Of a stretch of DNA of 64,000 bases, positions 4,087 to 54,582 are shown one piece after another. The notes below the pieces were generated by a model. It saw only the letters and a list, made by a program, of their open reading frames with translations, made no database searches and was not told the origin of the DNA. A program made the translations under genes and the position numbers. The stretch covers positions 13,377 through 77,376 of the forward strand of contig CBDHGK010000005.1 in the NCBI GenBank assembly GCA_965263045.1. The letters run 5' to 3'. The DNA is from Terriglobia bacterium (lineage in GTDB: Bacteria > Acidobacteriota > Terriglobia > 20CM-2-55-15). The first letter of the stretch is position 1. Each line of letters opens with the position of its first letter.

Positions 4087-7000
4087 ATGAGATTTGTCGT
4101 CCTCCTCACCGTCGCCTGGCTTTACAACGTGGTCCCAGTTGTAGCGGGACCTCCGCAGACCCACGGATCGTTCTCAGTACCGGATCGGGGCGGACAATCC
4201 AACGCGAGCAGCGGAACGGCAGAGACACTGCGCGTCGGCTATGGGCGAATTCGCGCGGACGCGCGTTCGACTACCCCTTCCGGAATCGCGATATTTCAAT
4301 TCAGGGACAGCGATGGCGTCCTGATCTCCGAAGCGGGTGTTCCAGCCGCCGAGCCTGTCGTCGAGGGCCGGATATTCGCTGAAGTGAACGGTCCGGTCAA
4401 TACCGGCCTGGCGATCGCCAATCCGAACGACGTGCCGGCAACCGTCCGTTTCTATTTCACCGACAGCCACGGCGTCAATTCGGGTAGCGGCAGCTTCGAA
4501 CTCGGAGCGCACCAGCAGACGGCGAAATTTCTGGATCAGGCACCATTCAACGGTGGTCCCTCCGTATTGGGCACCTTTACGTTTACCGCATCGGTTCCTA
4601 TCGCCGTCATTGCCCTCCGGGGATTCACCAACGAAGCCGGCGAGTTTCTGATGACGACGCTTCCGGTCGCGCCCCTGTCGTCGACCTCCTCGGATACGGT
4701 CTACTTTCCCCATTTTGCAGATGGTGGCGGATGGGCGACCCATGTCATTCTGGTGAATCCGATGGATCGGACGATTACGGGAACGGTCGGATTCCTGGGA
4801 CAAGGGAGCGATACGGCGCCGGCAGCGCCCGTAGTCCTGACGCTGGACGATGGTTCGACGGGGTCAAGATTCGATTATTCCATTCCTCCCCGCAGCGCTC
4901 AGAGATTCATCACCGCGAACCCTCCCGGCGGACTGGCCGTGGGTTCGGTGAGAGCGACTCCCCACAGCGGGAACGCCGCCCCCTCCGGGCTGGTCGTCTT
5001 CTCTTTTGCCTCCGACGGAAAGACCGTTTCCGAAGCCGGGGTGCCCGCGCTACCCAAAGGGTCGGCATTCCGTGTCTATGTCGAAACGTCGGGAATGCCC
5101 AATCAGCCGGGCTCGATCCGAAGCGGACTGGCTGTCACCAATGCGGGAGCCACAACCAATACGGTGACGCTGGAGGTTACACGTCTGGACGGGTCGCTGG
5201 CGGTGCCCCCGGCCACACTGGCGCTTCCACCGTCGGGTCAGATTGCCCGCTTTATCGACGAGATATTTACACTGCCGGACAACTTTTCCGGGGTGGTCCG
5301 GGTGACCTCCACGGTTGAAGTGGCCATCGTTGGGCTGCGCTTGCGCGTCAACGAGCGAGGGGAATTGAAGGTGACGACGACCCCGCCATCAAACGAAACA
5401 GCTGCATCGACCACGGCGGAAACATTCTTCCCTCATATCGCGGACTCGGGGGGCTGGTCCACACAGTTCATCCTGTTCAGCGGAACGGCAGGCCAGGCCG
5501 CAGCCGGAACGTTGAGTTTCTTCGACTACACCGGGCAACCGCTGTATCTGGAGACGCCCGCCGGAGCCGACAACGGTTCCTTCGTGGGCCAAGTCCAACT
5601 CGCATGCGAGGACTGCGGCGCGTTCGAGGATGTCAATGTCGTGCTGACCAGCGCCGGTGTCCTGGAAACCACCACACCAAATGTCTACAGCCAATTCGGG
5701 TTCTTCGGCTTGACCGCTGGAGACTACATCATTCAGGTTCGGAAACCGGGATTCCGATCCACGCCCGCCCGGTCGTTCCGCGTCGAAGCGGACGGGCGTG
5801 TCTCAACCACGGACAAGACGTTCTTCCTCTATCCGCTCGACTCCGACACGTTCGTGTTCCATTGGGAGGAAGACCAAAGCGCCGCTGGGTATGAGTACTC
5901 GGCCCACATCAACGAACCTCTTGAGGTCGAATTTCTTGATGAGGAAGTCACGAGGGCCGACAGCTCGTCTGCTGACCAACTGTTCCACGACTACAACATC
6001 ACGCTGGTCGATCACGGAGACAATGCCTGGACGCACGAGCACGCCTATCGCCTGTGGCAAACGATGGAATCGATTCCTCAGCGGAAGCGATATTCGTACG
6101 GCGTACAGTCGGTGCTCCCGAGTCAGTGGATCATAGTCTCCGAGCACGTGGCAGACGACATCCGAATCGACGCCGACACCAACGGGTCCCGGACTGTTTC
6201 TATCTCGGTCGATGCTTTCGTCTATGCCACCCCGAGGATTGCCCGCGTCGAGGGGAAGCGAGGAGCCTACTACTCGAAGCGTCTGCACCATGCGGCGGTG
6301 CGGTTCGTTACTGACAATGGCAACGATGCGGATGCGTACGAGAAGATCCTCCAGGAACGATTCGGAGTGACAACGCGGATCACCGATCATACGACCTACC
6401 GTGAATTGAGCGCCGCGACAACCGATGAACCCGCTTGGCGTTTCCAGGAATTCCATGCCGAAGAGATCGTACAGATCATCAACACCCTTGAGGAGATGCC
6501 CGCCGGAATGCACGCCATCGGGGGACTCAAGTACCTAGTGAGACGCCTAGACGGAACCCCGCACCCTCTGTATCCAGGGGCTCCAGCCGTTGCCTGGACC
6601 GGATCCGGTTACATCGAATTCATGGAGCACGCTTTCAACACGTCCTCCATTCTCTCCGTCCACCGCCTGATCATTCACGAGAAGGCGCATTTCCTCTGGG
6701 CATATCTGTTCGGCGATCAGTTGAAGGAGGACTGGACCGAACTGGGGGGATGGTACCCCGATGCGAACGACCCGGACGGGTGGTCCACCACCAAACAAAC
6801 GGAGTTCGTCAGTGCCTACGCCCATCGGAAGAACCCCAACGAGGACATGGCCGAGTCAATCGCCTACTTCGTCATCAACCCGGATAAGCTGCGATCCCGC
6901 TCTCCTGGAAAGTACGAATTCGTGCGAGCTCGCATCATGCAGGGGAGTTTCTACATCTCGAAAATCCGCGAGGACTTGACGTTCGAGGTGTACAACCTTT

Positions 7001-26643: not shown

Positions 26644-27470
26644 GGTTCTGGTGCAGACAGGCAAGAGGATTGGCGATAATGGGTTATGGCGCATCGGAAA
26701 ACTGAACGGAATCCTCTATTTGCCGGACGTTGGTTCGAAGACGACATCATTCTCCTCTGCCTTCGCTGGTATTTTCGCTTCAAACTGAGTTACCGGGATC
26801 TGGTTGCGATTTTAGCTGAGCGGGGTTTATCGATTTCGCACACCACGATCTTGCGTTGGGTCATTCGCTATGCCGAAACCTGCGAAAAGCGCTGGCGCCG
26901 ATTCGAGCGACCGGTAGGTGGGAGTTGGCGGGTTGATGAAACGTTTATCAAGGTGCGGGGCCAGTGGATGTATCTGTACCGCGCCGTGGATGGACAAGGC
27001 AACACCGTGGAGTTCTATCTGAGTCGAACACGCGGCATTGCAGCGGCGAAGGCATTCTTTCGCAAGGCACTGAAGCATCATCGGGAGCCACACAGCATCA
27101 CCTTGGATGGTCACCAGCCGAGCCATAGCGCCCTGCGGCGCATGGGAATGCACGGTGAGTTCAACTTCCGGGGGCGGAACCCGGTGACGATCCGTTGCTG
27201 TCAGTATCTGAACAATGTTGTGGAGCAGGACCACCGACGGGTGAAGGGGCGCTTGCGCCCGATGTTGGGATTCAAGACGTTCTACAATGCGCGACGCGTG
27301 ATTACCGGCATCGAGCTGGCGCAGAAGATTCACAAACGCCAGTTCGCAATTCCGATCCCATGGCAGTCGAATCCCGCGGTGATCTGGCGTCACGTCATGG
27401 CAGCATAGTCCGCATCGCCCTAGCGCACTCCTGGTCTTATCGCTCCGACAATCCTGTCTGCACCAGAACC
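26644..27470 (+). mobile_element. Intact IS6-family element, 827 bp
   Basis: Perfect 18-bp IR GGTTCTGGTGCAGACAGG at both ends; flanks unrelated and no target duplication. Confidence 0.95.
26686..27408 (+). CDS. IS6-family DDE transposase
   Basis: WRVDETFIKVRG, YLYRAVD and YLNNVVEQDHRRVK motifs. Confidence 0.95.
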   Translation: MAHRKTERNPLFAGRWFEDDIILLCLRWYFRFKLSYRDLVAILAERGLSISHTTILRWVIRYAETCEKRWRRFERPVGGSWRVDETFIKVRGQWMYLYRAVDGQGNTVEFYLSRTRGIAAAKAFFRKALKHHREPHSITLDGHQPSHSALRRMGMHGEFNFRGRNPVTIRCCQYLNNVVEQDHRRVKGRLRPMLGFKTFYNARRVITGIELAQKIHKRQFAIPIPWQSNPAVIWRHVMAA

Positions 27471-28249: not shown

Positions 28250-28927
28250 ATGACACAACCCAAAGACAAAGAATCCGACACCGGCAAAGAGTACGCCGAG
28301 ATATGGGGCGAGACGATCCACTCGAACCGCCACCTGCGTGTGTTCTCCATCGTCCTCGGCCTGTTGCTCCTATGCGTCACCATCGCCGTGGTTCGGCTCT
28401 CTTCGGTCGAGCCGCCCCGACCGATTGTTGTTCGGGTGGATGAAGTCGGCCGTGCCGAAGCCCTGGCCTATGAGACGGTCGAGGCTCAGGCCGACCCGCG
28501 CGATCCCACCACCAAGTATTTCCTCAACCGCTTTCTCCATGACCACTTCGGTCGCCGCCGGGCGACGGCGCAGCAATACTGGCCGCGCAGCCTCCGTTTT
28601 CTCACCACCGATCTGGCCAATGCGGCCTTCACCGCCAGCAACGAGGAAATCGCCATGCTGGCCGCCGGGATCACCCTGGAAGAGCTGCGCGTGGAGAATG
28701 TCGTGCTTCGGATTCAGCCCAATCCCACCGAGCCGCACGGGGCGGTGGCCGACTTTGTCCTCGTCCGGACCCGGCAGGAGCGGGAAGTATCTCGGGAGGC
28801 ATGGACCGCCACGATGCAGTTTGTCTTCATGCCGGTCATACCGGCCGACCTGGTCGTCTTTAACCCGATGGGGATCCAGGTCACATACCTGGAAACAGAC
28901 AGAACACTTATCACCGAGACGCCATGA
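28250..28927 (+). CDS. virB8: VirB8/TrbF-family protein
   Basis: Single TM, PIVVRVDEVGRA, and C-terminal NPMGIQVTY. Confidence 0.85.
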   Translation: MTQPKDKESDTGKEYAEIWGETIHSNRHLRVFSIVLGLLLLCVTIAVVRLSSVEPPRPIVVRVDEVGRAEALAYETVEAQADPRDPTTKYFLNRFLHDHFGRRRATAQQYWPRSLRFLTTDLANAAFTASNEEIAMLAAGITLEELRVENVVLRIQPNPTEPHGAVADFVLVRTRQEREVSREAWTATMQFVFMPVIPADLVVFNPMGIQVTYLETDRTLITETP

Positions 28928-29892
28928 TTACTCATTTGCGAGAACGTGAAAAAAACCTGGAGCCGTTCGGGTGGAACCCGCAAGACGCCGAGTGGGTGGC
29001 CCTGGTCTGTCTCCACAGCGGTGTGTTCACACGCGCGCAATACATGGCCTATTGCAACGCGCACCCCGAACAGGCCCGGCGCTTCGTTCAGGGCCTCCTG
29101 GACCTGAAACTTGCCGTGGAAGAACCCATTCCCGTCATTCGCCGCGAGAACCGGACCCGTGCCTGCCGGATCACCCACAAGGGCATCTACCGGCAGCTGG
29201 GCGTTCCCAACATCCGCCACCGCAGGTTCCCCGATCCGGGGGCCTATCTCCGGCGGCTCCTGTCGCTCGATTACGTCATCGAGCACCCAGAGCTGGAATG
29301 GCTCCCGACCGAAGAGGAAAAGGTTTGGTACTGCGGAGACATCGGCATCCCAACCGAACAGATGCCGAAGCGGATTTACACCGGAGCGGCCGGGGCCGTC
29401 ACCCGGTATTTCCCCCTGAAGCTCCCCGTTGCCGGCGGCCCGACCTGCACGTTTGTCTATGTCGATCCCGGCAACGACACCTCCACGGAAATGCAGCATT
29501 GGGGCCGGGTGCACGAGCATCTTTGGGCCAGTATGCGGGAGCGCAATATCAAGATTCATGTGGCTGCAATCGGAGTCAACTCCGACGCCGACAAACGCGC
29601 GCGCGCCGTATTAGACGGATGGGCGCTGGAGGAAAAAAGAGTCGCGGACGGGAGCCCCCAGGAGGCGGCCTTCGAGAAGGAACGGGACACAATCTCCAGC
29701 GCCCTCGATACCTTCGATTCCAAGGTTCTCGCCCGCTTCGGAGGCTTTACGAAGGCCGGGCAGCGCTACCGGGAGTTGGGGGATATTCTGGCACGGCCCG
29801 CGCCTCATGACATCCGGATTGACACGTTCGAGATATGGCGTTCCGGGCGTATTTATCCGGAGGGTGTGCAGATCTACGAGACGCCATCATGA
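28924..29892 (+). CDS. Conserved conjugation-locus protein with predicted N-terminal winged helix
   Basis: ATGA overlap with virB8; LVCLHSGVFTRAQY..RRLLSLDYVI..LPTEEEKV. Confidence 0.75.
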   Translation: MITHLREREKNLEPFGWNPQDAEWVALVCLHSGVFTRAQYMAYCNAHPEQARRFVQGLLDLKLAVEEPIPVIRRENRTRACRITHKGIYRQLGVPNIRHRRFPDPGAYLRRLLSLDYVIEHPELEWLPTEEEKVWYCGDIGIPTEQMPKRIYTGAAGAVTRYFPLKLPVAGGPTCTFVYVDPGNDTSTEMQHWGRVHEHLWASMRERNIKIHVAAIGVNSDADKRARAVLDGWALEEKRVADGSPQEAAFEKERDTISSALDTFDSKVLARFGGFTKAGQRYRELGDILARPAPHDIRIDTFEIWRSGRIYPEGVQIYETPS

Positions 29893-29954: not shown

Positions 29955-30545
29955 GCATTAATTCACAAGGCTAATTCACAGGGTCAATTCACAGTGCTGA
30001 TTCACACGGTTGTTGTCCCATATCCAGCGAAGTCACTTGGGGTTAGGCCATTTCAGGACGCAGTTCCAGAGCTGTTCCAGACGGGGGGTCCAGAACAGTT
30101 CCAGAGGGGGAGTCCAGAGCTGTTCCAGACAGGGTGGCCAGAGCTGTTCCAGAGGGGGTGCAGCGCCAGGGGCGCCCTTATTGAAAATCGGGCACCTGAT
30201 TCACACGCCCGATGCCGCTCCAGCGTGTGTATTGGCTCGGGGGTCTTAATTCACAGCGCTAATTCACAAGGCTAATTCACATGGTTAATTCACAGTGCTG
30301 ATTCACACAGTTGTTGTCCCATATCCCATGCATTCACTTGGGGTTAAGCCATTTCAGGACGCTGTTCCAGAGCTGTTCCAGACGGGGGGGCCGGAACAGT
30401 TCCAGAGGGGGAGTCCAGAGCTGTTCCAGACAGGGTGTCCAGAACAGTTCCGGAGAGGGGGTGCAGTGACGGGAGCGACCCCCCCTTTTTCGTGGGTTTA
30501 TCGTCACCGGACCCCCGTGCTGATTCACATCACGCGTGTCGGTGC
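29955..30545. repeat. Tandem duplication of about 301 bp, with nested 13-bp and 24-bp repeat arrays
   Basis: AATTCACAAGG at 29960 and 30261. Each unit has about four (A/G)ATTCACA at 13-bp spacing and about four CCAGA(G/A)C(T/A)GTTCCAGA-G-rich units at 24-bp spacing. Confidence 0.9.
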
Positions 30546-30624
30546 CGCCCTCCCCAAGGGGGGGGGGCGCTCCCGTCATAGTGATCCTTGCAGGAAGGCT
30601 TGAAGTCTGGAGACGTAAAGGCCG

Positions 30625-31162
30625 ATGAAATGGAGTCACGTTTTTCTATTTGTCCTGGCCGTGGCCGCCTCAACAGCGGTATGTGTGGAGCCCGTTTCCC
30701 TCTGGATCGGAGAATCCTGTCGTCGCGCTGATGGCCCTCGATGCGCCCATGCTTTTGTGGCTGATGCACGGTTGGTATGCCGCCATGCCCGGCGTCATTA
30801 CTTTTATCGGCGGGACGCTCGTTCTGGGTGTGTGGCGGGTCTGGTTCGAGTCCGGTCCACGGAAGAAACAGGGCAAGGGTGAGCTGCCTCCGTGGCCGAT
30901 CGCCGACACGGACGAGAAACCGGCCATCGTCGTCGGGGAGACGCATCACCCGGTCGAGGCGCGGGAGGTTCCCAACCCGGACTGGCTCGTGATCCCGGAA
31001 CGCGGACTCTTTACCGGAGTCGCCATCTTCGGGGCGGTCGGCTCCGGGAAGACCTCGGCTTGCATGCACCCGTTTGCCCGACAACTGCTCGGCTGGCAAG
31101 CGAGGAATCCGAAGCGGCGGGCCGCCGCCCTGATCCTCGAAGTCAAGGGGGATTTCTGCTAC
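30625..31162 (+). pseudogene. Type IV coupling protein (VirD4/TraG-like), 5' part
   Basis: TM segments and Walker A GAVGSGKTS; apparent frameshift near 30680; cut by IS1634 at KGDFCY. Confidence 0.85.
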
Positions 31163-33246
31163 CCCATGTTTACCCATTTGCCGCTTGATCGGGTGCGATT
31201 TTCGCCATTTTGGGCCGAAAACCCCGTAAGTTGTTGATTCCTGGTTGAGGTGACGAATGTAGTGCCATAATCGTTATGTTGGGGTTGAATTCGCTTGCGC
31301 CCCCCGGTATCGTGTTCCCATGTTCGTTCGCCGCACCCAAACCCGCCGCACCGAAAACGGCCAGATCTACTTCTCCCACCGCCTCGTCCGCTCCGAACGC
31401 ATCGGCGCCAAGGTCCGCCAGCGCACCCGGCTCAACCTGGGACGGCACTTCGACATCCCGCAGGCGGACTGGCCCCGGTTGTGCGTCCGGATCGAGGAAC
31501 TGCTTGCCGGACAATACGCCCTCATCCCGGACGATTCGGCCGCCCTGGAGCAGGAAGCCCAACGCATCGCGGCCCTGTTGATCGCCCGCGAAGCCGATCT
31601 CTCCGGCCCCGCCACCGGCGCCGCCCCCGAGACGCGGACCGTGACCGTGGAGGTGGATTCGCTAGAACTGACGCGCCCGCGTTCGGTGGGCGTGGAGCAG
31701 GCCGGCCTGTGGGCGATGGACCGGTTGGGGCTGCGGGAACTGTTCCAACGTCTGGGCATCAACGGCCCCCTGCGCGCCGCCGCGGCGGGATCGATTATCG
31801 GGCGTCTGGCCGCGCCCGCCTCGGAAAGGGCGACGCACCGCTGGCTGCGGGAACGCAGCGGCCTGGGCGAATTGCTGGGGGTCGACTTCGAGACCATGGG
31901 GGCGATGCAACTGTACCGGGCCTCGGACGCCCTGATGGCGCACCGGGACGCCATTGAAACCCACCTGTTCGAGCAGGCGATGAGCCTGTTCGATCTGCGG
32001 CCCACGGTCACCCTCTACGACCTCACCAACAGTTACTTCGAGGGTCAGGCCGAGGAGCAACCCCAGGCGCAGCGGGGACATTCCAAGGACAAGCGCCGGG
32101 ATTGTCCCCTCCTCACCCTGGGGCTCGTGCTCGATGGCAGCGGCTTCGTGCGCCGCTCCCAGGTCTTCGCCGGCAACGTGACCGAGCATCGGACCCTGCC
32201 TCAGATGCTGGAGGCGCTCCAGGCCCCCGGCGACGCCCTGGTGGTGATGGATCGGGGCATCGCCACTCAGGAGCGCGTCGCCTGGTTGCGCGAGGCCGGA
32301 TACCGCTACCTGGTGGTGAGCCGCCAACGCGACCGGCAGTTCGATCCCGAGGCGGCGGTCTCGATCCGGACGGCCTCGGGCGAGGACCTGCATCTGCACA
32401 AGACCGTGGACGAGGATGGCCAGGAAGCCCGCTTGTACTGCTATTCCGAGCAACGGGCCGAGAAGGAACAGGCCATGACCGAGCGCTTTGGGAAGCGTTT
32501 CGAACAGGCTCTGGACCAACTCTCCGAAGGCCTGTCCCGGCCGCGCACTCAGAAACGCCTCGCCCAGGTCTGGCAGCGCATCGGGCGGTTGAAGCAACAG
32601 AGCCGCGGCGCCGCCCAACACTACGACGTCCAGGTCGCCACCGACGACACCGGCGATACCGCGGTCGGGCTGACCTGGACCCGGCGTTCGGTCCCGGGCA
32701 CGATGGCCACCCATCCGGGCGTCTATTGTCTGCGCAGCAGCGAAACCGATTGGGACGAGGAAACGCTCTGGCGCACCTACATCACCCTCACCGATCTGGA
32801 GGCCGTCTTCCGCTCATTGAAATCCGAACTCGGTCTGCGCCCCATCTATCACCGCAAGCCCATTCGCGCCGAGGGTCACCTGTTCGTCACCGTCATCGCC
32901 TACCAACTCGTCCAGGTCATCCGCCGCCGCCTGGCCGCACGCGGGGAACACGCCAGTTGGTCCACCCTGCGCCGGATCCTCGGCGGCCAGCACCGCGTCA
33001 CCGCCACCTTCCGTTGCGCCGACGGCCGCACCCTGCACGTGCGCAAGGCCACCCGCGCCGAACCGCCTCAGCGCGCCATCTATGACGCATTGGACATCCA
33101 CCCCGCGCCCGGAGGGACCCGCAAAACCATCGCCTGATCTCCCCCATATCCCGCTTCTGTGCGCATTTGTAGTGCCACTTGCGCTTTTGAATCATCGTAA
33201 CTGCCTAATATATCAATGCTTTGCAAATCGGCTTGGTAAACATGGG
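31163..33246 (+). mobile_element. IS1634-family element, about 2.08 kb
   Basis: IR CCCATGTTTACC at both ends; (G)CTAC target duplication; excision restores DFCYDIREIL. Confidence 0.95.
31320..33137 (+). CDS. IS1634-family transposase
   Basis: MFVRRTQT, LYDLTNSYFEG, GHSKDKRRD, VVMDRG, LEAVFRSLKSELGLRPIYH. Confidence 0.95.
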   Translation: MFVRRTQTRRTENGQIYFSHRLVRSERIGAKVRQRTRLNLGRHFDIPQADWPRLCVRIEELLAGQYALIPDDSAALEQEAQRIAALLIAREADLSGPATGAAPETRTVTVEVDSLELTRPRSVGVEQAGLWAMDRLGLRELFQRLGINGPLRAAAAGSIIGRLAAPASERATHRWLRERSGLGELLGVDFETMGAMQLYRASDALMAHRDAIETHLFEQAMSLFDLRPTVTLYDLTNSYFEGQAEEQPQAQRGHSKDKRRDCPLLTLGLVLDGSGFVRRSQVFAGNVTEHRTLPQMLEALQAPGDALVVMDRGIATQERVAWLREAGYRYLVVSRQRDRQFDPEAAVSIRTASGEDLHLHKTVDEDGQEARLYCYSEQRAEKEQAMTERFGKRFEQALDQLSEGLSRPRTQKRLAQVWQRIGRLKQQSRGAAQHYDVQVATDDTGDTAVGLTWTRRSVPGTMATHPGVYCLRSSETDWDEETLWRTYITLTDLEAVFRSLKSELGLRPIYHRKPIRAEGHLFVTVIAYQLVQVIRRRLAARGEHASWSTLRRILGGQHRVTATFRCADGRTLHVRKATRAEPPQRAIYDALDIHPAPGGTRKTIA

Positions 33247-33250
33247 CTAC

Positions 33251-34732
33251 GACATCCGGGAGATTCTGAAAAAGGCCGGCCGGGAAGACGATTACATGGA
33301 ACTGAGCATGGACGGGAAATGGCAGTGGAACCCCCTGGCCGCGCACTGGCTCGATGCCTACTCCCTGGCCTATACCGTTTCCTCTCTCCTGAATCAGTTG
33401 TTCGGGAAGGGGAAAGATCCGTTCTGGCAACAGGCCTACACGAATCTGGTGAAGTGGATTATCGAGCTGTACCGGATCTTTCCCGGCCGCTGGGTGACCC
33501 TCCGGGATGTCTACCAGTGCGCGATCAACCCCGACCTGTTCAAGGAAAAAATCGATGAGGCCGGGGTTGTTGTCTACGTCCAGTTGCATGGGGAGATCGT
33601 GATTTCAGATAAGGATTGGAAGGCACACAAGGACGCGCTGCTCGCCTTTGGAAGCTGGAATGAACTTGAAGATGGGGAGTGTAAAGCCATCAAGACCCCC
33701 GCGTTGGAAGAATGGGTGCAAACGGAGGGAATCCCATACCGCATCACAGTGCCCAAGAGTCATACCAAACCGAAACGTTTGCTCGCGCGCTGGCAAAGTG
33801 TAAAGACCTGGTACGACCACGACTGGATGAAGCTGGACCCGAAACTGCGGACTTCGTGTGTCGAGGGGATTTCCAGTTTCCTGTCCCTGTTCGACATGGA
33901 GGACGTCGCTGATATTTTCTGTCCCCAGGCACCGCCGGTAGAGGACGCGGCCGAGCGACCCCAATGGGAGCCGAGAGAAGAAGGCGGAATCTGGAAGCAT
34001 CTGCCACCCCTGGACGAGCTGATCGAGAGCGGAAAAGTCCTCGCGCTCAACATGCCCGCCGGCTCGAATCCGGCCCTGGCCCGCGCCGTAGGCGTGTTCC
34101 TCAAAAACGCCTGGCTCCAGACCCTGCTCCGGCGGCCGGCACAGATGAAAGCGGACACGAAGCGTTACTTCCGGCCCGCCGTTTTTATCTGTGACGAGTA
34201 CCAGTCCTTCGCATCAGTCGGCGAGGACGACCCCTCGGGAGACGAGAAGGCGTTTGCCCTCACCCGGCAGTGCCGCGTCATCCCCATCGTCGCCACCCAG
34301 TCCATATCCTCGCTCCGATCCGTCCTGGGCACCTCCGAGGCTTGGCGCGCGTTGCTTCAGACGCTCCGCACCCGAATCTTCCTCTCCCTCAGCGACGACG
34401 CCAGCGCCGAGCTCGCCTCGAAACTGTGCGGGCAAGTTGCCAAGATCAAGCCGAGCTGGACCGTCACCGAATCGACGCGGCAAGCCGAAGTGTCGCTCCT
34501 GTCCGGCAAGGCCGGGGGCGGCCAGGGCTCGGTCGGAACCAGCAAGTCATTTCGGGAACAATGGGAGGCTTTATTTCAGCCCAGGGAGTTTGCCCTGCTT
34601 CCCAATTGCCAGGCGATTTGCCTGCCTTATGACGGCACCCACGCCACAAGTGCAGTCCGCGTCTATCTCAAGCCGTACTACCTTCCAGAGACGCAGCCCT
34701 ACTGGCGCGCCGTCGAGGCGGGGAAGATATGA
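33251..34732 (+). pseudogene. Type IV coupling protein, 3' part (TraD/TraG C-domain)
   Basis: WNPL, FWQQA, ICDEYQSF Walker B, ATQSISSL. Confidence 0.9.
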
Positions 34733-35724
34733 GCGCGGCAGATAGGGAGGGACGCGGCATGGACTACCTGCGCCCGTTTTTGCCGGGGCTGGAATCGGTT
34801 CTCGAAGATGAGGATGTCAGCGAGATCATGATCAACGGACCGGGCAACGTCTGGGTTGAAAGCCGGGGGAAAATCCGGGAGCATCCTGCCCCCGGCCTCG
34901 ATCGAGCGGCGCTGGATCGGGCGGCCATTCAGATCGCCCGGCCTCTCGGCCTCGATCCGGCTACCGCGCCTATTCTCGATGCCCGGCTGGACGACGGCTC
35001 CCGCGTGGCGATCTGTGTGCCCCCGGCCGCGCCGCACGTCGCCATCACCATCCGGCGCTTCGGCAAGCGGAGCTACTCGCCCGAGGATCTTGTGCGCTTC
35101 GGCTCACTGCCCCAAGAAGTCCTGGACGAGGCGCAGGCCGCGCTGCTGGGGCGGCGAAATATCCTGGTGTCAGGCGGGACCGGCTCGGGTAAGACCACGC
35201 TGCTCAATGCCCTGGTCGAGCTGCTCCCCGCCGACGACCGCATTGTTTCCATCGAGGACACCCTGGAACTCCGCATCGACCGGAAAAACTGTGTCCGCTT
35301 CGAGGCGCGGGGGATCGACAGTAAATCGGTGACGATCCGCGACCTCGTGCGCCATGCCTTGCGCCATCGCCCCGATCACATCGTGGTGGGCGAAGTCCGG
35401 GGCGGCGAGGCCGCCGATCTGCTGCAGGCGCTCAACACCGGGCACGGCGGATCCCTGACCACGATCCACGCCAACAACGCCGAGTCGGCCCTGTCGCGCC
35501 TCGCGACTTGCGCCATGCAGGGCGAGACTGACTTGCCCTGGGAAGTCACCTGTAGGGGCGTCGTGGACGGGATCTCCATGGTGATTCACATGACGCGGCG
35601 CGAGGGGAGGCGGTACGTCGAAGAAGCCCTCCACGTGGGCGATTACGACGCCGCAAAGCGGCGCTGGCACTACAGGCCCGTGGCGTTCGCCGACCCCCAG
35701 CTCAAACTGGCCGAGGTGCGGTGA
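34729..35724 (+). CDS. virB11: VirB11/TrbB/CpaF-family secretion ATPase
   Basis: [46 protein letters not shown]. Confidence 0.9.
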
Positions 35725-35882: not shown

Positions 35883-36809
35883 ATGAACGATAAATCAAAA
35901 CCTGCACTCTCTCAGGTGACACCACAAGCGCGCCACCACTTCACTCTCTTCGACCAGGTTGATCAGCTTGTAGGGGCCAGCGAAGCGGACGCCGAACTGG
36001 GCTTCATGACGCGGCTGCTGGCACTGTGTAGCTTGCCCCGTATTCACGCGAGCAACCAGACTTACTACAAACGGGTCAACGGGCCATACCGGCTCTACAT
36101 ACAGGCTGGTCCGGAAACAAAACTACCATTCGGCAACATTCCCCGCCTGCTACTGGCCTGGGTATGCACGGAAGCGGTACGGACCCAAAGCCGTGTCTTG
36201 ATCCTAGGCTCCTCGCTTTCGGAGTTCATGCGCAAGATGGGTATGGCTCCCGTCGGCGGTGGTCCTACAGGTGCTCGAACGAGGATCCGCAACCAGATGG
36301 ACCGGTTGTTCAACTCGCACATCGCACTAATCTACGAGGACGAACACGGAAAGGCCACAGTGAACTCGCCAATCGCCGACCGAACTGAACTTTGGTGGAA
36401 CCCCAAGCGCCCCAACGCACCGACGCTGTGGGAGAGTAAAATCGAACTCGGCGAGAAGTTCTTTGAAGAGATCATCAACCACCCGGTGCCTCTGGACATG
36501 AACATTCTCAATGCGCTTAAACGTTCGTCGCTCGGCCTGGATCTCTACATGTGGCTCACCTACCGGACCTTCGCGCTGGCCCACCCCCTCCACCTAACCT
36601 GGCCCCAGCTTTATCGCCAGTTCGGAGCTAACCCTACGCAGGCTACGGACAAAATTACTGTTCAAAACTTCCGGCGCAAGGTTCTCCGTGAGTTGAAGAA
36701 GATCAAGGTGGCATGGCCGGGATTCAAATACTCGACCGGGAAGGGCGTGTTGATTCTCTCGCCCTCCAAGCCATCCATCGCCCCCACAGGGCTTCAGCTT
36801 GTGAAATAG
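35883..36809 (+). CDS. repA: Plasmid replication initiator RepA (RepA_C-type family)
   Basis: LCSLPR, VNGPYRL, LPFGNIPRLLLAWVCTEAV, HPVPLD, LDLYMWLTYR. Confidence 0.9.
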   Translation: MNDKSKPALSQVTPQARHHFTLFDQVDQLVGASEADAELGFMTRLLALCSLPRIHASNQTYYKRVNGPYRLYIQAGPETKLPFGNIPRLLLAWVCTEAVRTQSRVLILGSSLSEFMRKMGMAPVGGGPTGARTRIRNQMDRLFNSHIALIYEDEHGKATVNSPIADRTELWWNPKRPNAPTLWESKIELGEKFFEEIINHPVPLDMNILNALKRSSLGLDLYMWLTYRTFALAHPLHLTWPQLYRQFGANPTQATDKITVQNFRRKVLRELKKIKVAWPGFKYSTGKGVLILSPSKPSIAPTGLQLVK

Positions 36810-36964: not shown

Positions 36965-37140
36965 GAATAAACGGGACACCTTAAAACTTGGCTTCTCTTG
37001 AATAAACGGGACACTTGCACCGTAATTCTCTTGAATAAACGGGACACCCTACATGTATTAAGAACAAATAGAAGATTAGGACATGTATTAGGCAAGGCGG
37101 GGGTTGTGAAAAAAAACAAGAAACAAGAAAATTATAAGAA
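36965..37140. promoter_or_regulatory. Putative iteron replication origin
   Basis: Three GAATAAACGGGACAC at 36965, 37000 and 37033, then two ACATGTATTA and an A-rich tract, directly downstream of repA. Confidence 0.75.
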
Positions 37141-53048: not shown

Positions 53049-53221
53049 ACTACGAGGCCCCTTTCATTTATAGCATTAAAGCATTAATGCTATATCTTGC
53101 CATCCTGCCTCCGTCGAAAATGGACTTGTAATGCCAAATATTTGTATTAACATGGTGTTACAGCTGTGGAGCATCAATGCCACCTAGCATTCTCACGACA
53201 AGGCGATATGGGGATAATGCT

Positions 53222-54097
53222 ATGACAATCGCGAACAGAAAGACACACATCATCGCAGTCGGCAATCAAAAGGGGGGAGTAGGGAAGACCACCAACACCG
53301 TGCACATCGCAACGGCGCTCGGCGAGCTTGGCCGTCAAAGCCTGATTTGGGACCTCGACATGAACCATGGCGCAACACGCCATTTCGGAATCGAAGGCAA
53401 TGCGTATCTCGGTTCCTTCGAAGTGCTCATCGGAGACGAGGCTCCAGAAAACGTCATCATGGACGGAAGCAACCAGGAAGTTGATCTACCCAAGGGTGTG
53501 CACCTGCTGCCAGCGAACCGCAAGCTTGAGCAGATTGACGATACGCTTACATCGAAAAACAAGTTCATCATCAAGCACCAGGTGCTCATCGAGCCTCTCA
53601 AACGCCTGAGAGGCAGATACGATTACATCTTTTTGGATACGGCGCCGAATGCAACAACCCCGACAATAGCAGCCTACTTTGCGGCAGAGTGGTTCCTGCT
53701 GACCGCTATTCCAGACCCGTTTGCGATAGAAGGGTTGAACGACGCGCTGCAGGACATCGCAAGCGTGAGAGAGCACGGAAACCCAGATATCACGGTCCTC
53801 GGGGTAGTGCTGACAACCGTGAATCGACGCACTCGACTCGGCCAAACGCTTGCCGAGTATGTCGAGCAGACTTTTACACTACCAAGCGGGTTGTGTCTCA
53901 AATTCGAGACCGAGATAGGGCGCTCAACCATTATTCCAACAGCTCAGAAGATTGGAAAAACAGTATTTCAAACTGAACCGACTCACAAAGTCACAGAGCA
54001 GTATCGAGAGCTTGCACGGGAATTCGAAGCGCAGTTTGAAAAACTGAAGCCACTACTAGATGAAGAGTATCAAGCCTCGACGGTGGCCAACACTTAA
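53222..54097 (+). CDS. parA: ParA/Soj partition ATPase
   Basis: NQKGGVGKTT, DLDMN, YDYIFLDTAP. Confidence 0.95.
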   Translation: MTIANRKTHIIAVGNQKGGVGKTTNTVHIATALGELGRQSLIWDLDMNHGATRHFGIEGNAYLGSFEVLIGDEAPENVIMDGSNQEVDLPKGVHLLPANRKLEQIDDTLTSKNKFIIKHQVLIEPLKRLRGRYDYIFLDTAPNATTPTIAAYFAAEWFLLTAIPDPFAIEGLNDALQDIASVREHGNPDITVLGVVLTTVNRRTRLGQTLAEYVEQTFTLPSGLCLKFETEIGRSTIIPTAQKIGKTVFQTEPTHKVTEQYRELAREFEAQFEKLKPLLDEEYQASTVANT

Positions 54098-54114
54098 CTG
54101 CGGGGAAGTAAGCC

Positions 54115-54582
54115 ATGGCAAAACGCGCACCAGAAGGGGAAAGAGACTTCAATCCGATCCAGGCAACCCTGGTACATGCGGCAGCTGGCCCAGCACGGTC
54201 GACGATTCAAGCTGTTCGGCCCCAGGAACCCCTGCCCGTGACGGATAATGACGGGACAGTTGCTGCAGACTTGCCGGTAGCTGCACCAATAAAGGCACCA
54301 CGTCAACAACGCTTCCTGCTGTCGTGGAAAGACGAGCAGGCACTCGGCGCGTTGACACACGACCTATCTGTGGCTGTGGGCACACCTGTCAAGCTCTCAA
54401 ACGTGCTCCGTTCCTGCGTTCTGCTCATTCGACACTCCGAGGTGGAAATCGTTCGAAACGCCGGTAGAACAGATCCACTCATACGTCCTGCCAACAACGA
54501 CCAAGCAGCTCTGGCGGTGTTCGAACATCGAATCGCACAGGTCTTTCAGGAAGGTTTTCGAGAGGCAAAACGCCTCACGTAA
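54115..54582 (+). CDS. Putative type Ib partition partner (RHH-like DNA-binding protein)
   Basis: Directly downstream of parA with GGGGAAG RBS; unstructured N-terminus followed by a QQRFLLS strand-helix-helix. Confidence 0.6.
   Translation: MAKRAPEGERDFNPIQATLVHAAAGPARSTIQAVRPQEPLPVTDNDGTVAADLPVAAPIKAPRQQRFLLSWKDEQALGALTHDLSVAVGTPVKLSNVLRSCVLLIRHSEVEIVRNAGRTDPLIRPANNDQAALAVFEHRIAQVFQEGFREAKRLT

Follow-up and report, generated by a model that had tools for sequence, protein, structure and literature searches.

What does a nested repeat array do when it lies inside a cluster of conjugation genes, immediately before the gene of the coupling protein? The question is raised by a 64,000-nucleotide stretch of DNA from a Terriglobia bacterium of the phylum Acidobacteriota (contig CBDHGK010000005.1, positions 13,377 to 77,376; hereafter the window), in which the segment 29955-30545 is filled with short direct repeats. 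The array separates virD4, the coupling-protein gene of a type IV secretion system (T4SS), from a gene starting at 28924, whose unannotated product of 322 amino acids is here called P322. An earlier note, made from the letters of the DNA alone, had described the array and asked whether it was a second origin of replication, an origin of transfer (oriT) or a centromere. In this study, the window was compared with sibling contigs of the same assembly and with foreign loci encoding relatives of P322. Among the three options the oriT was found to be the best fit, and on balance we lean towards the view that the array makes up the upstream half of the oriT of the conjugation module, the half to which protein would bind, in an expanded and duplicated form that would work like the oriT2-TraX system of pAD1 or TcpK of pCW3.

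Structure of the repeat array

The array occupies most of the 732-bp spacer between P322 and virD4, and a repeat search of the window bore out the nested structure that had been described. Two blocks, 29959-30158 and 30260-30459, are spaced by 301 nt and align without gaps over 200 nt at 92% identity. The box ATTCACA is repeated on the + strand at an exact period of 13 bp, four times at 29961-30006 and five times at 30249-30307, with lone boxes at 30199 and 30523; the boxes are intact in both units. Of the 16 copies of ATTCACA in the window, 11 lie within 29961-30529, all on the + strand, against an expectation of 5.8 +/- 2.5 for the whole window. The boxes are followed in each block by 24-bp G-rich units with the consensus TCCAGAGCTGTTCCAGACGGGGTG (4.0 copies at 30065-30160 and 4.2 copies at 30366-30466), and the two 24-bp arrays contain nine copies of GTTCCAGA, compared with 2.2 expected for the entire window. 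Inside the 24-bp units the spacing of TCCAGA alternates between 11 and 13 nt, so that there are effectively two kinds of short box. The spacer has a G+C content of 56%, and no part of it other than the box runs is A+T-rich. Its features are as follows.

29958..30009, + strand: box array 1, four ATTCACA at a 13-bp period
30010..30062, + strand: conserved spacer segment 1 (CCCATATC...CACTTGGGGTTAGG), common to all sibling spacers in an alignment of 17
30063..30160, + strand: 24-bp repeat array 1, four units, with the 11/13-nt alternation of TCCAGA and a G-run
30170..30180, + strand: GGGCGCCCTTA, a look-alike of a MOBQ nic site, judged a chance match and not conserved in other spacer classes
30181..30232, + strand: conserved TTGAAAATCGGGCAC motif, then the inverted box pair ATTCACACGC / GCGTGTGTAT, 14 nt apart; the motif and an inverted pair of the local box are present in every sibling spacer
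30247..30311, + strand: box array 2, five ATTCACA at a 13-bp period
30312..30363, + strand: conserved spacer segment 2
30364..30466, + strand: 24-bp repeat array 2, 4.2 units
30467..30578, no strand assigned: conserved branched hairpin, outer stem 30467-30485 / 30560-30578, with ATTCACA 30523-30529 in the loop of an inner hairpin
30584..30598, + strand: ATCCTTGCAGGAAGG, the window copy of the invariant motif ATCCYTGCRGGAAGG, with a 4-bp mini-hairpin; candidate nick region

The TTGAAAATCGGGCAC motif and the inverted box pair sit between the two block copies. The region is best read as non-coding, in agreement with the earlier description, because most of the length differences among sibling spacers (13, 24, 145 and 301 nt) are not divisible by three and the sequences vary box by box or in a compensatory way. 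The sequence GGGCGCCCTTA at 30170-30180 is present as had been reported; the meaning attached to it did not survive, since it is one mismatch away from the MOBQ core TAAGTGCGCCCT, has no adjacent inverted repeat and is absent at the equivalent position of all other spacer classes, including that of the five siblings with a MOBQ relaxase. The boxes differ, as had also been claimed, from the iterons of repA, which consist of an unrelated 33-bp unit.

Distribution of P322 and its spacer among sibling contigs

The window lies on an 80-kb contig (C5) of a binned long-read metagenome-assembled genome (MAG), the assembly of which comprises one contig of 6.47 Mb and 40 contigs of 6-123 kb; binning cannot show that all 40 share one cell, and small indels are uncertain. 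A total of 32 copies of P322 were found in the MAG, none of them on the large contig (the chromosome), and the order virB6-virB8-P322-spacer-virD4-virB11 recurs on about 25 plasmid-like contigs. In its complete form, on contig C16, the repeated backbone includes an Ank-ArdC gene, virB2, virB3, virB4, virB10 and virB6, with several unknown genes interspersed, and continues with virB8, P322, the spacer, virD4, virB11 and repA. The P322 copies form clades at approximately 94%, 72%, 65% and 45% identity to the window copy. Across the sibling copies VirB11 is about 95% and VirB8 about 89% identical, and RepA only 53-72%. The difference between VirB11 and RepA would be expected if replication specificity must diverge for co-residence; alternatively, binning may have pooled the plasmids of a population.

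The full double array is present on six contigs at 94-96% identity, and most of the other sibling spacers are about 460 bp long and contain no ATTCACA. Alignment of 17 sibling spacers revealed the plan of this short form. Its 5' part carries TCGAAAATTGG, followed by a short word that occurs first as an inverted pair, separated by about 20-25 nt, and then as two direct copies at a 13-bp period; in its middle a conserved CCCATATC...CACTTGTGGTTAG segment precedes a further copy of the word and the G-rich TCCAGAGGGGGAG; and its 3' part consists of a large hairpin with the word in an inner loop and a conserved tail before the virD4 start. The basal spacer opens with a TCGAAAATYGG motif and an inverted pair of a box that is specific to the element, and ahead of its hairpin there is a further box or a G-rich TCCAGA unit. 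Each element has its own box of 7-9 bp in 4-6 copies (one inverted pair, two to five direct copies at 13 bp and one in the hairpin loop). The word is CAAATTACA in eight of the aligned spacers, CAATGCGCA in four, CAATTGACA and CAATGCACA in two each and CAAGTTGCA in one, and the box types of the genome are ATTCACA, AAATTACA, AATTGACA, AATGCGCA, AATGCACA, AAGTTGCA and TTGCGCA. The box changes in concert at all five or six positions of a spacer, the inverted and loop copies included, and the box words are nearly absent elsewhere on their own plasmids.

Where the 24-bp array stands in the window, basal spacers have a single TCCAGAGGGGGAG, and a four-unit variant is found on contigs C36 and C11 and at the foreign loci L024 and L038; C36 combines the word TTGCGCA with a 4 x 24-bp array. 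Siblings contain two, three, four or five boxes and zero to four 24-bp units. Judged by this comparison, the window clade is an amplified form of the region, with five boxes in place of two, four 24-bp units in place of one G-rich TCCAGA element, and the whole block doubled. Contig C19 has a 145-bp tandem duplication of the hairpin part (C19:20540-20835, 2.0 copies, 97% identical), which indicates that the spacer is generally prone to duplication; the P322 gene of C19 is broken. Solitary copies of the spacer or the hairpin, without P322, virD4 or other T4SS genes, were found at C37:65600-66010, C11:19540-19790 and C4:540-740. On C37 as on C11, a stub of virD4 (its first 30-90 nt) abuts the same foreign sequence.

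Distribution in foreign genomes

A scan of species-representative genomes yielded 80 foreign loci encoding relatives of P322 at 42-81% identity, in records named Terriglobia, Bryobacterales, other Acidobacteriota and Gemmatimonadota. In 69 of the 80 loci virD4 is the next gene after 330-870 bp (the distance is 1,400 bp in a single locus that carries an inserted intron); upstream of the P322 relative there are usually virB6 and virB8, and virB11 follows virD4. An exact inverted repeat of 10-18 nt with the core ACGnnAGCGACCCC and with arms 64-86 nt apart is present in 66 of these 69 spacers. As in the siblings, a spacer tends to have a repeated word of its own, and the words include TGTGACA, TGGAACA, GGGACA, GTACCA, TGCCGCA, GTAACA, TGCGCAC and TTCACA, among others. 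Four or more copies of a non-GC 7-mer are present in 24 of 27 own-genome spacers and in 37 of 69 foreign ones, and the 7-mer repetition exceeds that of at least 99 of 100 shuffles in 21 own-genome and 16 foreign spacers. Homologues of the gene at 28924 that are 42-96% identical are followed, in these 69 loci and on the approximately 25 sibling contigs, by a 330-870-bp spacer before virD4 that has its own repeated box and the shared hairpin. This recurrence supports the suggestion of the earlier note that the array would be a protein-binding type of platform tied to that gene.

The amplified form is not a one-off. In the MAGs of L024 and L038, with P322 proteins 80-81% identical to that of the window, the spacers measure 873 and 779 bp and contain eight TCCAGAG, from which it follows that the long form has persisted through considerable divergence. 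These conjugation modules, found in soil Acidobacteriota and also in Gemmatimonadota, constitute a large and undescribed family.

Conserved hairpin and invariant motif

The 3' parts of 37 diverse spacers were aligned, and covariation was counted over the 14-bp outer stem and the 4-bp mini-stem, 666 cells in all. Watson-Crick pairing was found in 98.8% of the cells, compared with 47-52% when the partner was slid by one to three columns. Changes on both sides occurred at six pairs and one-sided changes at none; one stem pair is present in four types (GC 18, AU 15, CG 2 and UA 2), and not one of the 666 cells is a G-U pair. The lack of G-U intermediates indicates that complementarity is needed at the level of DNA, as a single-strand hairpin or a cruciform, and not of RNA. 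The DNA of the window copy folds far better than shuffled sequences on both strands (z = -4.1 and -6.0), and the spacer gave no match in Rfam. The outer stem encloses two inner hairpins, one with a C-run and a G-run and one with the box of the element in its loop.

About 5-10 nt past the stem stands ATCCYTGCRGGAAGG, which is invariant in the 37 spacers from both phyla; its Y/R pair covaries (CG in 33, UA in four, unpaired in none), and virD4 starts 26 nt past the motif in the window and about 25-70 nt past it in relatives. The stem core AGCGACCCC/GGGGTCGCT was found even directly after P322 homologues of only 23-25% identity (L123 and a contig of G018). The pattern AGCGACCC-N45-75-GGGTCGCT, applied genome-wide to score the co-occurrence of the hairpin with P322, located the stem core just 3' of the distant G018 homologue; its gap range misses most of the own-genome copies, and it also matches a palindromic repeat family of the genus g7. 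That family, AGCGACCCCCTGCCGCC...GGGGGAGA...GGGGGTCGCT, is unrelated and occurs in several copies per genome in G032-G034.

At L050 an open reading frame (ORF)-less group II intron (~5160-6087; RF02005 2e-54 and RF00029) is inserted on the + strand, the junction falling exactly behind ...TATCCCTGCG in the invariant motif. The conserved hairpin lies just 5' of this site, and the insertion may reflect the targeting of a single-stranded DNA stem-loop by the intron. At L123 (G046:C1, ~6290-6540), where the P322 homologue has 25% identity, the hairpin and virD4 are separated by a ribbon-helix-helix gene. The ribbon-helix-helix is the classical fold of relaxosome accessory proteins.

P322 and candidate readers of the boxes

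No match to P322 was obtained in Pfam, NCBIfam, PHROGs or the sequences of the PDB. It was absent from the 72,556 catalogued plasmids of PLSDB (tblastn), and DNA searches of the same plasmids with the spacer and its flanks, for near and for distant matches, returned nothing. Metagenomic protein collections contain 3,410 homologues, none of them named, and a profile search retrieved 2,348 cluster representatives. The AlphaFold model (predicted local distance difference test, pLDDT, 83) comprises an N-terminal winged helix (residues ~19-91), a middle alpha/beta domain and a helical tail. Foldseek matched the first domain with winged helix-turn-helix (wHTH) proteins of the MarR type at a probability of 0.85-0.93, at E values of 0.2 or above. 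Homologues of 23-30% identity are still encoded inside T4SS clusters just before virD4, and Y89, R98, D116, E132, K133 and D181 do not vary even at 23% identity, a pattern that suggests an enzyme rather than a mere binder; the canonical PD...ExK spacing is not evident.

P322 is a likely candidate for the cognate DNA-processing protein of the spacer and the prime candidate for a reader of the boxes. A few class-specific substitutions were found at residues 93, 96 and 100, just after the wHTH, and at 223, 245 and 277; they are inseparable from shared ancestry. Residues ~44-52 (window 29053-29079), at the start of the presumed recognition helix, form a hypervariable mosaic patch whose variants (NAHPEQ, KTYPSR, NAHHSR, NTYHLR, NTHPVR and NVHRSQ) are shuffled among clades independently of box class. 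The absence of a simple helix code is compatible with P322 as the reader, since TcpK reads its boxes by the wing and loops (PMC6137059). Two other kinds of reader were considered and rejected. Plasmids that share a box have RepA proteins with no more than 53-72% identity, and the boxes are unlike the RepA iterons. An all-against-all comparison of the ORFs of 18 contigs, in which several apparent families were antisense ORFs of conserved genes, returned only the T4SS genes, P322 and RepA as sufficiently widely shared, and none of these separates the box classes cleanly.

Relaxase genes of the genome

The canonical relaxase families PF03432 and PF08751 are absent from the MAG. MOBQ genes (PF03389, MobA_MobL) were found only on C16, C6, C10, C35, C40, C1 and C27, whereas P322 and the hairpin are universal, and no MOBQ relaxase gene was found on the window contig. 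The relaxase encoded just upstream of ArdC on C16 (C16:11821-12831) and at equivalent places on C6, C10, C35 and C40 is RSF1010-like, has 336 amino acids and starts with MAIYHLNVKTGSR...; within the genome this arrangement is limited to these five siblings, which belong to the AAATTACA box class. A 359-amino-acid protein of C31, encoded upstream of ArdC at the position that MobA has on C16, was considered as a relaxase and rejected as a low-complexity coiled-coil membrane protein.

Function of the spacer

The generic layout of an oriT is recognizable in the spacer: a non-coding gap directly before virD4, a covarying inverted repeat and element-specific boxes. An oriT fits this layout better than the alternatives do because of the gap beside virD4, the hairpin with its invariant motif, the direct repeats at a distance from them (about 100-250 bp upstream) and the gene of a DNA-binding protein upstream. 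Further support comes from the lack of a canonical relaxase other than the minority MOBQ and from the spacer copies that survive without a T4SS on C37, C11 and C4.

From the anatomy, conservation, covariation and synteny observed, we infer binding, nicking, a binder and a role in transfer along the following lines. A sequence-specific protein, with P322 as the prime candidate and its winged helix as the means, would coat the boxes in an out-of-phase, wrapping or filament-like manner. The coated boxes would position or melt the neighbouring hairpin region, the cut in one strand would fall within the hairpin, next to it or within the ATCCYTG motif, and the cut DNA would be passed to the coupling protein VirD4. 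In the window clade the box run would have grown from two to four or five and the single TCCAGA unit to four 24-bp units, after which the 301-bp block would have been duplicated, giving more docking sites.

Several observations weigh against this account. The P322 tree and the box classes are roughly congruent, with an imperfect fit: residues 1-70 of P322 are identical on C3 (AATTGACA) and C25 (AATGCGCA), which have different boxes; C23 and C20a likewise combine different boxes with near-identical P322 proteins; and the P322 of C26a is 93% identical to that of the window, with different upstream boxes. The loop box at times disagrees with the upstream boxes (C18, C34 and L065/L077/L086). With regard to catalysis, the middle domain of P322 gave a weak Foldseek match to the small subunit of the restriction enzyme R.BspD6I (probability 0.38, E 0.38). 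PF13814 (Replic_Relax), which we take to be equivalent to MOBC, did not match P322 at E <= 10 either in 35 family members or in a six-frame search of the genome, and alignment of the P322 family with 13 Replic_Relax proteins of the phylum by hhalign gave a probability of 4.5% and an E value of 0.009, co-linear over 184 columns. The latter alignment pairs FVYVDPGNDT with FxEADRGTE; membership of P322 in Replic_Relax, suspected by eye, gained no support from either the hidden Markov model or the profile-profile test. The resemblance of ATCCYTG to YATCCTG, the nick core of MOBP, is only putative. An RSF1010-type oriT near mobA was not located in the five MOBQ siblings, so that the spacer need not be the sole oriT of a plasmid. 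Finally, if the + strand were nicked, ArdC would enter the recipient late, unlike the usual anti-restriction genes of leading regions.

The most serious competitor of an oriT, which we nevertheless regard as unlikely, is a transcription control region or leader for virD4-virB11-repA, in which the boxes would be the operators of an element-specific repressor (P322 or another protein) and the hairpin would function within the leader or separate virB from virD4 as a barrier. The spacer is indeed followed immediately by virD4 with its ribosome-binding site, the occurrence of one box both as an inverted pair and as direct repeats is a typical operator arrangement, and the group II intron of L050, on the + strand just after ATCCCTGCG, indicates by its orientation that the 3' part of the spacer is transcribed on the + strand. 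Scans of the window spacer and of the basal C16 spacer, however, detected no sigma-70-type promoter and no intrinsic terminator; the absence of wobble pairs from 666 cells is unlike RNA structures; no Rfam family matched; and the boxes stand upstream of no other plasmid gene, and copies of the spacer are kept where virD4 has been lost. Control of transcription and an oriT are compatible and may coexist, as many oriTs overlap promoters; the oriT of IncA/C overlaps the mobI promoters (PMC5587640). A lesser doubt concerns the amplification itself: the basal spacer could be functional, and the extra boxes, the 4 x 24-bp arrays and the 301-bp duplication could be neutral products of slippage and unequal crossing-over in a region prone to repeats, with no gain of function. 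The variable copy number among siblings, the 145-bp duplication of C19 and the decayed T4SS of the window contig are in line with this idea, which we consider improbable in view of the doubled form at 94-96% identity on six contigs, its persistence in L024 and L038 across 20% divergence of P322 and the intact boxes of both units.

The other two options named in the earlier note fall under a plasmid maintenance site, that is, a partition-adaptor centromere, a second iteron-type origin or a copy-control (handcuffing) array served by P322. Direct repeats with periods of 11-13 bp do resemble parC-type centromeres, a wHTH protein beside repeats recalls Rep-iteron pairs, and P322 is confined in the MAG to plasmid-like contigs. 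Against a second origin stand the RepA_C protein and 33-bp iterons that the plasmid already has, the boxes of 7-9 bp at a 13-bp period, compared with iterons of about 17-22 bp, and the restriction of A+T-rich stretches to the box runs in a spacer of 56% G+C overall; against a centromere stands the ParA operon, which is 23 kb away and has no ATTCACA boxes nearby. Near-identical arrays on six co-binned contigs would be incompatible under either reading, a point weakened by the fact that binning does not prove one cell. In addition, the translation of P322 is coupled to that of virB8 within the T4SS operon, and relatives carry several copies per chromosome. A second origin and a centromere are both unlikely, and a maintenance site of any kind appears slightly less credible still than neutral amplification. 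The least credible explanation, to which we give almost no weight, is that the repeats are subterminal transposase-binding repeats of a neighbouring insertion sequence (IS) or other mobile element. P322 is multi-copy and an IS1634-family transposase gene lies 700 bp downstream, but the ends of that IS were mapped to 31160 and 33249, inside virD4 and 560 bp past the array, which contradicts the idea; sibling spacers without the IS keep the architecture, and the multi-copy unit is the whole T4SS-RepA backbone.

Comparison with known transfer systems

The closest described system to the oriT proposed here is oriT2-TraX of pAD1: the two have in common a gap at the coupling-protein gene, a conserved inverted repeat and element-specific short repeats. 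Francia and Clewell reportedly placed the pAD1 gap, in 2002, between a TraG-like coupling-protein gene and traX, and are said to have described its oriT as a large inverted repeat conserved between related plasmids together with plasmid-specific direct repeats of about 11-bp periodicity. The pAD1 oriT lies in the non-coding gap ORF53-ORF57 (PMC3084688), and TraX, a MOBC protein of Enterococcus faecalis, combines an N-terminal winged helix with a domain of the restriction-endonuclease type and binds five direct repeats 70-120 bp from nic (PMC12857230). In contrast to TraX, P322 has no detectable PF13814/Replic_Relax homology and lacks the invariant PD of that family, with PxRxY standing at the aligned place instead. 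The host is moreover a diderm and the T4SS is of the VirB type with VirB11; the hairpin is branched with a box in the loop; and the arrays are much larger (11 boxes and eight 24-bp units).

TcpK of pCW3 (Clostridium perfringens) is encoded by a wHTH gene just upstream of oriT in the orientation of the transfer genes; it binds a 9-nt box in tandem at a 12-nt period, provides relaxosome specificity, and reads DNA by the wing and loops instead of the recognition helix (PMC6137059). TcpK, however, is small, has no second domain and works with a separate relaxase (TcpM), and pCW3 has only two box pairs and no long arrays. With respect to a relationship with P322, sequence searches of the PDB gave only noise and TcpK was not among the top 50 Foldseek matches in the PDB. 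We would therefore file the P322 system as one that works like MOBC or TcpK-type oriTs and not as a member of either, the resemblance to TcpK being one of function and layout only.

The oriTs of IncP (RP4) and other MOBP/MOBQ systems likewise have an inverted repeat followed by a short nick motif near relaxosome or coupling genes, and ATCCYTGC of the present spacers has a putative resemblance to the MOBP core YATCCTG|Y. They differ in that no MOBP relaxase is present in the genome, that the inverted repeat of the spacers encloses 64-86 nt and two inner hairpins in place of a small loop, and that the core TAAGTGCGCCCT of the RSF1010 type is not conserved. ParR-parC and omega-type arrays also consist of many short direct repeats at a non-helical period of 11-13 bp, on which a bound protein would spiral around the DNA; the array of the window, in contrast, is inside a T4SS operon and not beside par genes, and the par operon has no such boxes.

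A possible new relaxase family

A bolder proposal can be made, although we hold it to be doubtful at present. P322 might be the founder of a new family of conjugative relaxases, with a winged helix and a nuclease-like domain, analogous to MOBC without detectable homology to it. It would act on a modular oriT, in which the conserved branched hairpin would be the catalytic site and the fast-evolving, amplifiable boxes would be an address label that sorts co-resident siblings into transfer-specificity groups. If this were true, conjugative plasmids of the VirB type and integrated elements, which make up a large undescribed lineage across Acidobacteriota and Gemmatimonadota, would be served by the new family. 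The Acidobacteriota are among the most abundant soil bacteria, and their plasmids and conjugation systems are almost unknown; the present MAG contains one conserved transfer module in dozens of copies, with a key protein that has thousands of homologues and no family annotation, and a control region whose signals, the concerted switching of boxes and the strict compensatory changes in a branched DNA hairpin, are unusually clear. Should the spacer prove to be an oriT, with P322 as its relaxase or its specificity factor, annotation tools would acquire a MOB class that they now lack, predictions of mobility in the soil plasmidome would shift, and the box arrays would be a natural system for the diversification of transfer specificity among co-resident plasmids. 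The place of the window itself is more modest, that of an amplified form of the region in a module with decayed transfer genes.

Gene neighbourhood of the array

The genes and elements around the array are listed below.

26686..27408, + strand: IS6-family transposase (NF033587 1.8e-68), truncating the 5' end of virB6
28250..28927, + strand: virB8 (PF04335 1.3e-16), 88-99% identical in sibling modules
28924..29892, + strand: P322, 322 amino acids, unannotated, N-terminal winged helix; its start overlaps the virB8 stop (ATGA)
30625..31159, + strand: 5' part of virD4 (coupling protein); two nucleotides are deleted near 30675 in comparison with sibling C22
31160..33249, + strand: IS1634-family IS inside virD4; transposase 31320-33137 (605 amino acids; NF033559 7.7e-86)
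33250..34732, + strand: virD4, 3' part (PF12696, PF10412); the two parts are contiguous in sibling copies
34729..35724, + strand: virB11 (TIGR02788 6.8e-66)
35883..36809, + strand: repA (RepA_C family; PF04796 3.3e-32), a separate replication initiator
36965..37048, + strand: 33-bp iterons 3' of repA, unrelated to the boxes
53177-54582: ParA operon (ParA 53177-54097), without nearby ATTCACA boxes

The position assigned to the array earlier, between the wHTH gene and the coupling protein, is correct insofar as virD4 starts at 30625; the ORF 31320-33137 has to be taken out of this picture, as it encodes the IS1634-family transposase, the IS of which has terminal inverted repeats of 15 nt at 31160-31174 and 33235-33249. 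Sibling VirB6 proteins align with the window ORF only from residue ~90. The 2-nt deletion in virD4 could be a frameshift or a Nanopore error. No matches to VirB2-VirB10 were obtained on the window contig. With virB2-B10 missing, a truncated virB6 and a broken virD4, the transfer module is a remnant, though one that retains P322 and the spacer intact; at most, these two would serve for mobilisation by an intact sibling such as C31. One further ATTCACA, at 35584-35590 near the 3' end of virB11, keeps its position in all contigs of the ATTCACA class and is probably plain conserved coding sequence.

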